DNA from: a virus
UHGV virus genome: UHGV-1573643
Length of the DNA: 12,023 bases
Strand: one strand, 5' to 3'
Position 1 is the first letter of the stretch. Each line of letters begins with the position of its first letter. Of this stretch, positions 6,678 to 9,997 are shown in pieces. The notes below the pieces were generated by a model that saw nothing but the letters and a program-made list of their open reading frames with translations, ran no database searches and had not been told where the DNA came from. The translations under genes were made by a program, and so were the position numbers.

Positions 6678-6986
6678 GTTAGTTGTGCCTCCGGCGCTTA
6701 TCTCCGGCAGTCATAACGCTGGCCAGCTCTACAGCAAACACAACGAAAAGGGCACTAACCAGACTGATTAATGCCCTTGCCTGTTGTGTGCCGGATATCG
6801 CCCGACAACGCTGTTTTGGTAACACGGCTACAGTTCCGTGCCGCTCCAGCTTTTACCCCTTTGCGGATAACAGGCCCTGCCTGTAACTTAGCCCCACGTT
6901 CGCCCGAAATGCGCACCAGGCACGCATAAAGATGAGCACGAAGGAAGTAACTCCACCGCGCTTATCTTTATGTGTGAGAGTGAATT

Positions 6987-8172: not shown

Positions 8173-8455
8173 GATTAAACCCTAATGCGTCAACTATCCG
8201 CGCCAGATTGCCCCTGAAATACAGAACAACGATGCAGATAATCAGATTTCCAATAACCACCAGCCAGTGGGATTCTTGATAAAGACCGAACACATAACGG
8301 AAGGGAACATTGGCGTATACAATGACGTAGATATAAGCCAGAAAGGAAACAAATGGACGATGCCTGGAGTCTTTCCGTCGATAAAGCATCAGCGCCATTA
8401 CTATTACTGTGCAAAGCACCGCATTAATCAGTGCTGACGGGTCACTGCTTACCAT
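8159..8455 (-). CDS. holin-like small membrane protein (about 98 aa, three predicted TM segments)
   Basis: Three hydrophobic segments; preferred start ATG 8455..8453 with GGAGG 8 nt upstream (ORF-track start at 8491 is TTG and lacks SD); overlaps upstream gene stop and endolysin start by about 14 nt each. Confidence 0.55.
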   Translation of the reverse strand: MVSSDPSALINAVLCTVIVMALMLYRRKDSRHRPFVSFLAYIYVIVYANVPFRYVFGLYQESHWLVVIGNLIICIVVLYFRGNLARIVDALGFNHDQR

Positions 8456-8837
8456 TTGAACCCCCTCCACGTAAGCGGGAAAGCATTCCAAAGATGCTAC
8501 CGAGATCCTGGCTGTTTACGAACGTGAGGATTTTAATGGTCAATGCAGCCACAATAACCGCACCAAGCGCATCCAGAGGACGATCGTTGTAGCTGGTCCA
8601 TTTGGCAAGAAATGAGCCAACTAACGGCGCTCCAATCACTCCAACAATGAACGATGTAAAGAAATAGCCAATCAGCTTGAGACGGCTAATATTCACCGCT
8701 GTAGCAACATAGAAAACAGCGCCAGCAAATGCCCCGAATACAACGCCGTAATCAATACCAGTTGCAATACCAAAAACGCTGGCACCCATCAGGCCACCAG
8801 CAGCAACGGCCGTACCGGAAATTGGTTCTGCTGACAT
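8442..8837 (-). CDS. holin-like membrane protein (131 aa, Gly/Ala-rich TM segments)
   Basis: ORF-track ORF; multiple hydrophobic segments; first gene after the tR'-like terminator; ATG at 8837. Confidence 0.65.
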   Translation of the reverse strand: MSAEPISGTAVAAGGLMGASVFGIATGIDYGVVFGAFAGAVFYVATAVNISRLKLIGYFFTSFIVGVIGAPLVGSFLAKWTSYNDRPLDALGAVIVAALTIKILTFVNSQDLGSIFGMLSRLRGGGSNGKQ

Positions 8838-8850
8838 TGAAATCCTCGTT

Positions 8851-8881
8851 AAAAAAAAAGCCCCGCCGAAAAAGGCAGGGC
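8851..8881 (-). terminator. tR'-like rho-independent terminator directly upstream of the lysis genes
   Basis: 8 bp stem 8860-8867/8874-8881 (G-U wobble in minus-strand RNA), loop GAAAAA, followed on the minus strand by nine U (complement of A-run 8851-8859); only about 13 nt separate the U-tract from the holin ATG. Confidence 0.7.
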
Positions 8882-9027
8882 TTCATAAAGCAACAAATTA
8901 CGCGGTAATCGCTTAACGCAGTTTTACTACGTTAAATGAAACACTACACCCAGTTACCACCTAAAACAAGGTTTTCCCATAAAAAAACCTTCATATCGTG
9001 GTTAATCGATCAATAAAAAAGCAATGT

Positions 9028-9207
9028 TCAACTTTTTACCAACCGAACATCCCAACCAGGACTTCCATAATATTCGCCGATATGCCACTGCTTAAGTTGA
9101 GTAATCTTCTCCAACTTAACTCCCATAGAGTCCAGTTTCTGCCATGTTTTCGGTTGTATGTGCTTCATTACCCGCTCTGAATATCTGAATACTGCTCGTA
9201 AGCGCAT
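9028..9207 (-). CDS. hypothetical small protein (59 aa) in the late leader region
   Basis: Hand translation MRLRAVFRYSERVMKHIQPKTWQKLDSMGVKLEKITQLKQWHIGEYYGSPGWDVRLVKS, ATG 9207..9205 to TGA 9030..9028; weak SD (GAGA). Below the ORF-track cutoff. Confidence 0.35.
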   Translation of the reverse strand: MRLRAVFRYSERVMKHIQPKTWQKLDSMGVKLEKITQLKQWHIGEYYGSPGWDVRLVKS

Positions 9208-9231
9208 GGTTTCTCACTACAGCTTATATAA

Positions 9232-9281
9232 GTGGTTTTTCCAGCGGTTTTGCGCCGCGCTGGGCTTTTTGCAAAAACCAC
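9232..9281 (-). other. nested stem-loop element in the 178 bp gap upstream of the leader ORF
   Basis: Outer stem GTGGTTTTT (9232-9240)/AAAAACCAC (9273-9281) enclosing inner stem CCAGCG (9241-9246)/CGCTGG (9258-9263); on the plus strand the inner stem is followed by GCTTTTTGC. Confidence 0.4.
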
Positions 9282-9385
9282 AATCCATCATCCCGTAATA
9301 TTTCATCAACCCCATCCGTCGGTTGCTGAGTCTCACCCACTGCCAGACGCTAGGGGCGTTTCTACGAACTAACAGAATCTTTGCT

Positions 9386-9997
9386 TTACGGTTTTTCATC
9401 GTTTTGCTCTCCTGCGTCTCCTTTGGTGCGAATTCCAGCGGCGCGCTCGGCTTCACTTTGTTCCCAAAACCACTTGTGAAGCTCCATGAGCTTTTCGTCA
9501 ATCGGTGCATATTTGCGATTAAAGTAGGCCTGAGCATCTTTCTCAGATTCGTCCGGCAATTCGCCTGGACCAAACAGTGTGTTATAAATCCATGCCAGTC
9601 CGCTTTTAGCGTCGCCAGTCGATTGCCATTCGATAATGGCAGCCTGCATGACCAGAATGTTTTTCCCGATTAATAGGTCCAGTTCTTTGTACCTGTTGCG
9701 GATGTATGCATTCTCGCTTTGTAATTTTGCGTTGCGCTTCTCTGCGGCTTCCAGCTCAACACGCAGCTTCCCTACCGTTAGCGCAATTTCCTCGTTCTCC
9801 TGGTCACGGCGTTTTATGTATTGCTGGTTTCTTTCCCGTTCATCCAGAAGCCCCAGCACAATGTGTGGCGTTATCAAGGACTCAAATTCGGCAACAGCTT
9901 GCTCGCCTCGCTTGTAATTCTTAATCCCACCTAAATCTTTCGCGTTCTGTGCCGCCTCACGCAGTGCCTGATAGTTAATTGCTGTGCTGTTAGTCAT
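9386..9997 (-). CDS. hypothetical coiled-coil protein (203 aa); possibly Ead/Ea22-like
   Basis: ATG 9997..9995 with GGAGG upstream, overlapping the upstream stop by 8 nt; charged heptad-like middle region (LRVELEAAEKRNAKLQSENAYIRNRYKELDLL); no cysteines. Family assignment is a weak recollection. Confidence 0.65.
   Translation of the reverse strand: MTNSTAINYQALREAAQNAKDLGGIKNYKRGEQAVAEFESLITPHIVLGLLDERERNQQYIKRRDQENEEIALTVGKLRVELEAAEKRNAKLQSENAYIRNRYKELDLLIGKNILVMQAAIIEWQSTGDAKSGLAWIYNTLFGPGELPDESEKDAQAYFNRKYAPIDEKLMELHKWFWEQSEAERAAGIRTKGDAGEQNDEKP

Follow-up and report, generated by a model that had tools for sequence, protein, structure and literature searches.

A strong terminator at the holin start of an Escherichia coli phage-plasmid, and a probable divergent relative of Q among its early genes

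How are lysis genes expressed when a strong intrinsic terminator ends almost on the start codon of the first of them? This question is raised by a 12,023-nucleotide stretch of viral DNA, the UHGV virus genome UHGV-1573643 (the whole stretch is hereafter called the window), in which a conserved leader closed by such a terminator precedes a holin gene. A sequence-only reading of positions 8838 to 9385 had proposed an antitermination logic like that of lambda pR'-tR', had recognised no Q protein upstream, and had suggested that late control may use a divergent protein or an RNA-based mechanism. The source of the window was found to be a ~48-kb phage-plasmid of E. coli and Escherichia fergusonii (99% identity), that is, one of the circular plasmids that are also phages; p48 of strain 1428 (L002 in the coordinates below) and pRHB23-C02_4 (L045) are examples of near-identical plasmids. 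All window genes lie on the minus strand, within a single long leftward direction of transcription that starts at a CI-like repressor region. The early genes follow one another leftwards as Ref nuclease, DUF1064, a 125-amino-acid protein, DUF3560, a winged-helix protein, Ea22 and others; after them come the lysis cassette (holin, holin, GH108 endolysin and spanin-like genes), then a tRNA, an MT-A70 methylase and ParB-like genes, and finally the terminase, head and P2-like tail genes. The comparative evidence presented here supports antitermination at the lysis genes well, and profile comparisons suggest that the early 125-amino-acid protein is probably a very divergent relative of Q. The features at the lysis genes are as follows.

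8848-8884, minus strand: intrinsic terminator, made of the stem-loop 8884-8857 (GAAGCCCUGCC/UUUUUC/GGCGGGGCUUU) and the U9 tail 8856-8848
8442-8847, minus strand: first holin gene with its Shine-Dalgarno sequence (131 amino acids, ATG at 8837; Pfam Phage_holin_8, E 1.7e-37)
8491-8159, minus strand: second holin gene (Pfam Phage_holin_3_7)
8172-7630, minus strand: endolysin gene (GH108)

The terminator scan returned a stem of 11 base pairs, seven of them G-C, followed by T9. The folded RNA has a free energy of -20.5 kcal/mol (z = -5.1), and none of 200 shuffled sequences folded as well. The U tract ends at 8848 and the holin ATG stands at 8837, 10 nucleotides on. Between them the order is AAC, GAGGA (8847-8843, the Shine-Dalgarno sequence) and TTTCA, so that the gap holds a ribosome-binding site only, and a consensus scan of the minus strand from 8838 to 9230 found no sigma-70-like site. 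Both the strong terminator abutting the holin and the lack of room for a promoter behind it, as stated in the sequence-only reading, are thus borne out, and the lysis genes therefore need read-through.

This need for read-through gains support from the comparison of related plasmids. The backbone of the family, at about 70% nucleotide identity and with saturated synonymous sites, is shared with a Salmonella Weltevreden plasmid (L003), two IMG/VR lineages (L008 and others) and a Klebsiella aerogenes contig (L140). Across lineages the sequence of the terminator varies while its pairing is kept, with one double and two single compensatory changes. Moreover, the terminator precedes two unrelated lysis cassettes, namely, Phage_holin_8 with GH108 in some lineages and a 97-amino-acid holin with a lysozyme in the Salmonella, L008 and K. 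aerogenes lineages; the leader therefore belongs to the backbone and not to the lysis cassette. In more distant relatives (L019, L033-L035, L034 and L037), whose homologues of the 125-amino-acid protein are 53-64% identical, a terminator also stands directly against the holin Shine-Dalgarno sequence, and it is an AT-rich box, not the present leader, that lies ahead of it. Further strong intrinsic terminators on the same strand were found between downstream modules, as listed next.

6778-6748, minus strand: intrinsic terminator (terminator scan)
5489-5466, minus strand: intrinsic terminator (terminator scan)
4101-4076, minus strand: intrinsic terminator (terminator scan)

With three more terminators downstream, processive read-through is needed in general, and terminator-punctuated transcription is a design feature of this phage-plasmid family. 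As at the lambdoid pR'-tR' loci, the control region is separated by an intrinsic terminator from the first late gene, and the lysis genes follow directly. On this comparative, sequence-based evidence we regard an antitermination logic at the lysis genes as well supported.

The leader that ends in this terminator contains the following parts.

8848-9025, minus strand: whole conserved intergenic element, 178 nucleotides
8956-9002, minus strand: hairpin I, two-tier, with the lower stem ACCAC (9002-8998) / GUGGU (8960-8956), then GUUUUAG
8991-8982 with 8977-8968, minus strand: upper stem of hairpin I (-8.3 kcal/mol, z -2.7)
8915-8971, minus strand: nearly invariant block of 57 nucleotides, CCTTGTTTTAGGTGGTAACTGGGTGTAGTGTTTCATTTAACGTAGTAAAACTGCGTT
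8913-8935, minus strand: hairpin II, UUAACGUAG-UAAAA-CUGCGUUAA (-10.3 kcal/mol, z -4.0)
8885-8912, minus strand: variable spacer, with the U-rich stretch UUGUUGCUUUAUG directly ahead of the terminator

In every lineage compared, the leader (9025-8848) has changed less than the genes on its flanks, and its conservation sets in within 5 nucleotides of the preceding stop codon, whichever gene that belongs to. The block at 8971-8915 has only eight variable positions over five lineages (8962, 8961, 8960, 8953, 8950, 8938, 8937 and 8922), next to coding DNA that is ~70% identical with saturated synonymous sites. The leader is also unusually structured, as had been claimed: positions 9030-8838 fold at -59.9 kcal/mol (z = -4.55), better than all 200 shuffles. 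The hairpin coordinates first given for it were only approximate, the real ones being 9002-8956 and 8935-8913, and the hairpin placed at 8900-8912 amounts to a 3-base-pair stem that is no better than chance (z -1.7). In the consensus fold a hairpin is followed by a mostly unpaired invariant linker, a second hairpin, a variable U-rich spacer and the long-U-tailed terminator; within the G/U-rich linker there is only a weak helix of 4 base pairs. The lower stem of hairpin I is invariant and its upper stem carries two both-sided changes in the Salmonella lineage, while the core stem of hairpin II is invariant and gives no covariation information. The spacer at 8885-8912 has a lineage-specific sequence in which TTG(Y)T(R)(Y)TT is kept, a motif that resembles the U-rich part of an Hfq-binding module. 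A switch between alternative antiterminator and terminator pairings was considered and rejected, given that the leader core is invariant across lineages with different terminator arms, so that core and arms do not co-vary.

Two side observations concern hairpin I. Its loop and the 5-nucleotide spacer after ACCAC are hypervariable within invariant sequence: the five bases at 8993-8997 occur in six forms (GATAT, AATAT, GATTT, AGAAT, ATTGT and ATTTT), and the loop and 3' arm (8972-8981, minus strand) vary as well, among plasmids that are otherwise ~98% identical. A search of genome contigs with the gapped hairpin I pattern returned chance matches only, in unrelated phyla.

Which protein, then, could provide the read-through? 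None of the window proteins matched a Q family in Pfam or PHROGs, and direct scans of the other non-structural proteins of p48 against the same two databases found no Q, N or other antiterminator family. The statement that no Q is recognisable therefore stands for the window and for direct scans, but a remote Q21/QuuD homologue is encoded outside the window, and control without a Q-type protein does not follow.

L002 31731-31354; L045 2179-2556: gene of the 125-amino-acid early protein WP_001250512.1 (phrog_5285, function unknown)

This gene lies ~4.3 kb upstream of the terminator and 1.1-1.5 kb past the right edge of the window, in the same leftward operon; in pRHB23-C02_4 it occupies L045 2179-2556 and the holin starts at 6894, with about ten genes between. 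The close family of the protein comprises 31 proteins of at least 57% identity, and the profile built from it retrieved 131 full-length relatives from 1.8 billion representative proteins. Among the relatives scanned, 12 of 116 match PF06530 (best E 3.7e-6) and others match sigma-70 region 4 or extracytoplasmic function sigma factors. Searched against the PDB, the family profile had Q of phage 21 (Q21; 6JNX/6P18) as its top match at E 2.2e-5, the runner-up being at 0.11; the match covers the N-terminal LExWxxW...S..A region of Q21, not the helix-turn-helix. A strict profile of 37 members, each at E <= 1e-15 and none individually QuuD-like, again placed Q21 first (E 1.5e-4). Aligned with the QuuD alignment in hhalign, the family gave a probability of 94.8% and E 5.5e-8 over 112 colinear columns, and strict subsets gave 66% and 45%. 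As for structure, the best fold matches of the predicted model are sigma region 4 domains, and a viral fold library returned only unnamed or sigma-like proteins; the predicted fold may be sigma-region-4/Q21-like. By these profile comparisons the 125-amino-acid protein is a remote homologue of Q21/QuuD, and probably a very divergent member of that lineage (PF06530). Between the E. coli and Salmonella lineages it is 92% identical, against ~70% for its neighbours, so that, taken with the invariant block, protein and leader are conserved together.

A place where such a protein might load can be read within the block.

8964-8969, minus strand: candidate -35 hexamer TTGTTT, read from the sequence, 17 nucleotides upstream of TAGTGT (3/6 consensus; invariant)
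8941-8946, minus strand: candidate -10 hexamer TAGTGT, read from the sequence (key T1, A2 and T6 present; invariant)
8929-8934, minus strand: candidate sigma-dependent pause element TAACGT, -10-like, at about +1 to +6 (invariant)

The candidate pause element starts 12 nucleotides downstream of the start of the candidate -10 hexamer; at lambda pR' the corresponding offset is ~13 nucleotides, and TAACGT resembles the lambda element in sequence and in offset. The 17-nucleotide spacer of the candidate promoter contains the GGTG-containing direct repeats GGTGGTAA and GGGTGTAG, 11 nucleotides apart, the two GGTG repeats being placed at 8960-8953 and 8950-8943, and no further copies of the GGTG-repeat motif were found elsewhere on the plasmid. 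The three candidate hexamers contain none of the eight variable positions, an outcome for which a post hoc calculation gives a chance of ~0.03. Relative to the candidate start, the block extends from roughly -37 to +20. Going by the Q cassette and its pause-element requirement as described in bioRxiv 10.1101/651190, and by the precedent of AlpA (see below), this would be about the extent that a Q-loading site needs.

Together these results suggest a lambda-style antitermination system in which a displaced, unannotated and divergent Q would gate lysis, a reading to which we give roughly even chances of being correct. Three of its parts we infer, namely, antitermination by the 125-amino-acid protein, its loading in the 57-nucleotide block, and the start of transcription. 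The strong terminator at the holin ribosome-binding site would gate the lysis cassette, and the lysis genes would be made only once RNA polymerase has become termination-resistant. The most likely factor would be the element's own early protein, WP_001250512.1, and its most likely loading site the block at 8971-8915, read as a weak sigma-70 promoter (TTGTTT, 17 nucleotides, TAGTGT) followed by the pause hexamer TAACGT. Without the factor, a terminated RNA of ~85 nucleotides would be released; with it, transcription would run into the lysis genes and through the further same-strand terminators downstream. Alternatively, the factor could load at AT boxes or at the early promoter.

Several observations speak against this proposal. 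With the close family alone, the hhalign signal against QuuD is weak, though in the same register, and hmmscan found no PF06530 match in the 125-amino-acid protein even at E 0.1; the positive controls, QuuD and mEp390 Q, scored 179-184 bits. Foldseek ranked Q21 first, but at a non-significant E of 0.66 (template modelling score 0.45-0.52), and the predicted model has a local confidence (pLDDT) of 77, with residues 21-47 below 50. In contrast to classical Q genes, the gene is not adjacent to the terminator, being an early gene near the repressor in all relatives. In addition, relatives with a near-identical predicted recognition helix have an AT-rich box, not this leader, before the holin, and to judge from these sequences the shared binding site may be the AT boxes, also present in this element, rather than the block. 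The candidate promoter agrees with the sigma-70 consensus at 6 of 12 positions, below the threshold of the scan, whereas known pR' promoters are strong and constitutive. Finally, conservation reaches ~55 nucleotides upstream of the candidate -35 hexamer, over a hairpin that shows compensatory changes, an indication that this stretch is part of a transcript.

The main rival explanation, which we hold to be possible but less likely, is that the 178-nucleotide element is primarily an Hfq-type small RNA, either released by processing from the 3' part of the upstream mRNA or started at an unrecognised promoter. In order, it would consist of stem-loop I, an invariant seed that is G/U-rich and single-stranded (AACUGGGUGUAGUGUUUCAUU), stem-loop II, a U-rich stretch and the U9-tailed terminator; the latter would chiefly form the 3' end of the RNA, and read-through into the lysis genes would be left to polymerase modified elsewhere, for example at the early promoter or at AT-box sites. 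In a permissive Rfam scan the best match of the leader is GcvB (RF00022), which aligns at 8852-9009 over the whole model with a score of 36.3 bits (search E 2.4e-6), hairpin I corresponding to SL1, the G/U-rich stretch to R1, hairpin II to SL2 and the terminator to SL5. In three homologous leaders, too, GcvB ranks first or shares first place (L004, 32.5 bits; K. aerogenes, 25.7; Salmonella, 21.7). The gathering score of 42 is nevertheless reached by no leader, in that of Salmonella GcvB is on par with terminator-anchored noise (VqmR 22.1, GlmZ 19.9), and 48 model positions, those of R2/SL4, are replaced by 4 nucleotides; we therefore do not assign the element to GcvB and treat the likeness as a lead only. 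A small RNA would agree with the invariant G/U-rich stretch being mostly unpaired between two hairpins in the consensus fold, with the two both-sided changes in hairpin I, and with conservation from the upstream stop codon on, as for an element in a 3' untranslated region; there is also a precedent in StxS, a short terminated phage late transcript that binds Hfq (PMC7547250). On the other hand, no credible promoter was found upstream of 9009, so that such an RNA would need to be processed from the upstream mRNA. The near-complete invariance of 57 nucleotides, hairpin loop included, exceeds what a seed usually needs, and a search of the rest of the plasmid for antisense targets of the leader revealed no complementarity to other transcripts beyond 10-11-mers, which were about as frequent as chance would give.

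The invariance of sequence, and not merely of pairing, would suit an RNA in contact with polymerase, and two conserved stem-loops do stand just ahead of the terminator. Under the RNA-based mechanism of the sequence-only reading, the leader RNA might itself confer terminator resistance in cis, with no phage protein needed, as does put of HK022, which consists of two adjacent stem-loops located just downstream of a promoter and acting in cis on polymerase. Here, however, the stem-loops are ~20 nucleotides apart, separated by invariant single strand, no promoter was found upstream of them, and no Rfam cis-regulatory family scored above noise; besides, a constitutive cis antiterminator placed right before its own terminator would leave the latter pointless. 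We consider this reading very unlikely. Somewhat less so, though still unlikely, is the absence of any dedicated antitermination, with either plain leak-through past an operon-end terminator or a 125-amino-acid protein that acts as a sigma-region-4-like activator of initiation, perhaps at AT boxes. An activator would suit the fold matches to sigma region 4 domains, the AT-rich boxes with TATAAT-like repeats ahead of several modules, and the early position of the gene away from the late genes, but the sequence signal falls on the N-terminal region of Q21 and not on the helix-turn-helix. Leak-through, unlikely in itself, is at odds with a -20.5 kcal/mol hairpin with a U9 tail, which should leak little, and with the terminator being kept at the holin start in many lineages, which points to regulated read-through. 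Both versions also face the lack, in this lineage, of an AT box or other promoter between terminator and holin.

It is tempting to combine the two better explanations, although we find the combination doubtful. A GcvB-like phage-plasmid small RNA with a G/U-rich seed would reprogramme host mRNAs for amino-acid transport and metabolism, and its terminator would double as a lysis gate opened by a displaced subfamily of Q21-like proteins; small RNA in the plasmid state and lysis on induction would then be two outcomes of one unit.

The open reading frames upstream of the leader, and one other small early gene, are given next.

9028-9207, minus strand: gene of 59 amino acids (phrog_9594), the usual but not obligatory upstream neighbour of the leader
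9217-9399, minus strand: open reading frame of 60 amino acids (phrog_1380), which contains the nested stem-loop 9232-9281
11271-11017: gene of a small protein with a C-x21-CxxC pattern (52-amino-acid core, L002 29366-29208), in the early operon (phrog_2358, function unknown)

The 59-amino-acid frame, which had been counted as part of the leader, is a real gene, kept in Salmonella and other lineages at a ratio of nonsynonymous to synonymous substitution (dN/dS) of 0.19-0.33, but it is not a required part of the unit. Its product was considered as an obligatory missing factor and rejected, as pMB9880_3 and L010 have the same leader behind a different gene; the 125-amino-acid protein is present in the plasmid that lacks the 59-amino-acid gene (L038/L010). 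The nested stem-loop at 9232-9281 does exist (-20 kcal/mol, z -2.7), but it lies outside the conserved control unit, because it is inside the 60-amino-acid frame and its 5' arm is missing in the closest relative, p48. The Ea22-like gene together with the 60-amino-acid frame downstream of it (9230-9860) is ~95% identical to the early-left region of Stx-converting phages such as 933W and Sakai, with a mosaic boundary near 9230. For the C-x21-CxxC protein, the idea of an Ogr-like zinc-finger regulator found no family match. Between the lysis genes and the MT-A70 gene lies a tRNA gene with anticodon CAT (7061-6986, minus strand), which ARAGORN calls tRNA-Met and whose homologue RefSeq annotates as a tRNA-Ile, of the lysidine type.

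Several repeated elements occur elsewhere on these plasmids and in their relatives.

Window 11894-11868, 7233-7201 and 6089-6061, minus strand; L002 40766, 35057, 31298, 30085, 25422 and 24278: AT boxes
Window 6093-5975; L002 31298-31171 and ~40766-40650: copies of a ~115-bp element, one of them directly downstream of the Q-like gene
L002 33723-33737, 33826-33840 and 34577-34591: perfect ACCAC-N5-GTGGT copies in the immunity region, outside the window
L019 14484-14900; L033 ~16800-17130; L035 ~19390-19720: G+C-rich non-coding stretch

The AT boxes consist of 8-base-pair repeats (TTATATAA / TTATAGAT) and lie ahead of several gene modules, with at least six per plasmid, in all lineages including the distant L019, L033 and L034. 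By analogy with the C1 operators of P1 and the heptad arrays of omega proteins, they could be dispersed promoters or operators, or else antiterminator loading sites. The ~115-bp element comprises an AT box, then AAAAAGTGCTTTACAGGTGGGAAAAAATTTCCTAAGG...ACCGAGCGATACCCGCCCTGGTTAAACCGGAGA, then ATG; there are three copies in p48 and at least two in the Salmonella and L008 lineages, while in distant relatives the AT boxes are followed by another repeated leader (TTGCGCATTAGGACTAAAAGTCCTATTATC). Each of the two has the look of a promoter with a structured 5' leader. The palindrome ACCAC-N5-GTGGT occurs at seven sites on the plasmid, against 0.69 expected, and is the probable operator of the CI-like repressor. 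The two ACCAC/GTGGT half-sites of the lysis leader are the lower stem of hairpin I. An operator of the prophage repressor in this leader was rejected, the leader having half-sites only, 37 base pairs apart, and the single match in the window not being significant.

In L019, a related phage-plasmid whose Q-like protein is ~60% identical, positions 1405-1605, beside a Rha-family gene, hold a C4 antisense RNA of the P1/P7 type together with its a1b1 targets and isrK; each of these exceeds its Rfam gathering threshold. The locus suggests that the wider family possesses an immunity module that works through RNA. Relatives of the L019 type also share a conserved, G+C-rich and apparently structured non-coding stretch of ~400-500 nucleotides ahead of the AT box, the terminator and the holin gene; in L019, the only one of the three loci scanned, it had no Rfam match at E <= 0.05.

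The family, of about 65 plasmids, is frequently met in E. coli and its relatives. Fifty-one complete E. coli genomes, that of the reference strain ATCC 25922 included, contain 80% or more of the window; the ATCC 25922 plasmid (NZ_CP009073) belongs to the family. Three Yersinia myophages are ~98% identical to the window over the common parts. The pSLy3 group was considered and set apart as a separate family of roughly 100 kb. Lysis control in the family has so far been unannotated, and we found no literature on the regulation of these plasmids or of the related Yersinia phages. If the proposed antitermination is correct, about 130 'hypothetical' protein clusters (phrog_5285) would become a subfamily of Q-type antiterminators, the presence of a Q-type gene among early genes, away from the late promoter, would widen the known Q layouts, and the 57-nucleotide block would be a compact candidate loading site. 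In view of the sub-threshold likeness to GcvB, the control region might also yield a host-acting small RNA, with StxS of Shiga-toxin phages as a parallel.

How does this locus compare with known systems? With GcvB (RF00022) the leader shares a 5' two-tier stem-loop, a G/U-rich linker (GGUGUAGUGUUUCAUU, compared with GAUGUUGUGUUUGCAAU in GcvB), a second hairpin and a long-U terminator. It differs from GcvB in its sub-gathering scores in every lineage, in the missing R2/SL4, and in being plasmid-borne, between phage genes and with no adjacent gcvA. StxS, the short PR'-tR' transcript of Shiga-toxin phages, is an Hfq-binding small RNA (PMC7547250); the likeness lies in a short terminated RNA just upstream of the late genes, a by-product of antitermination that is possibly regulatory, which here is predicted only, and there is no sequence similarity. 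AlpA of Pseudomonas aeruginosa (PDB 7XYB) is an antiterminator of the alpBCDE lysis genes, with a terminator immediately upstream of alpB; its binding element lies between the -35 and -10 hexamers, and one such factor can serve more than one locus (PMC7969949). The intrinsic terminator immediately upstream of the first lysis gene is common to both systems. AlpA, unlike the protein described here, is chromosomal and encoded beside its main target; the binding motifs of the two systems are unrelated, and no sequence relation between the 125-amino-acid protein and AlpA was found.

The closest parallel is drawn with the lambdoid Q/pR'-tR' systems, such as those of Q21 (6P18/6JNX) and QuuD (PF06530). 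The factor gene here lies ~4.3 kb and about ten genes upstream, early and beside the immunity region; the 125-amino-acid protein fails PF06530 and is listed as of unknown function (phrog_5285); the terminator is 10 nucleotides before the holin ATG and not hundreds of nucleotides away; and the candidate promoter is weak by consensus. What the two arrangements have in common is an intrinsic terminator between the control region and the first lysis genes, with more terminators further on; a candidate factor that is a remote Q21/QuuD homologue with a predicted sigma-region-4-like DNA-binding domain; and a candidate promoter with a -10-like hexamer just downstream.

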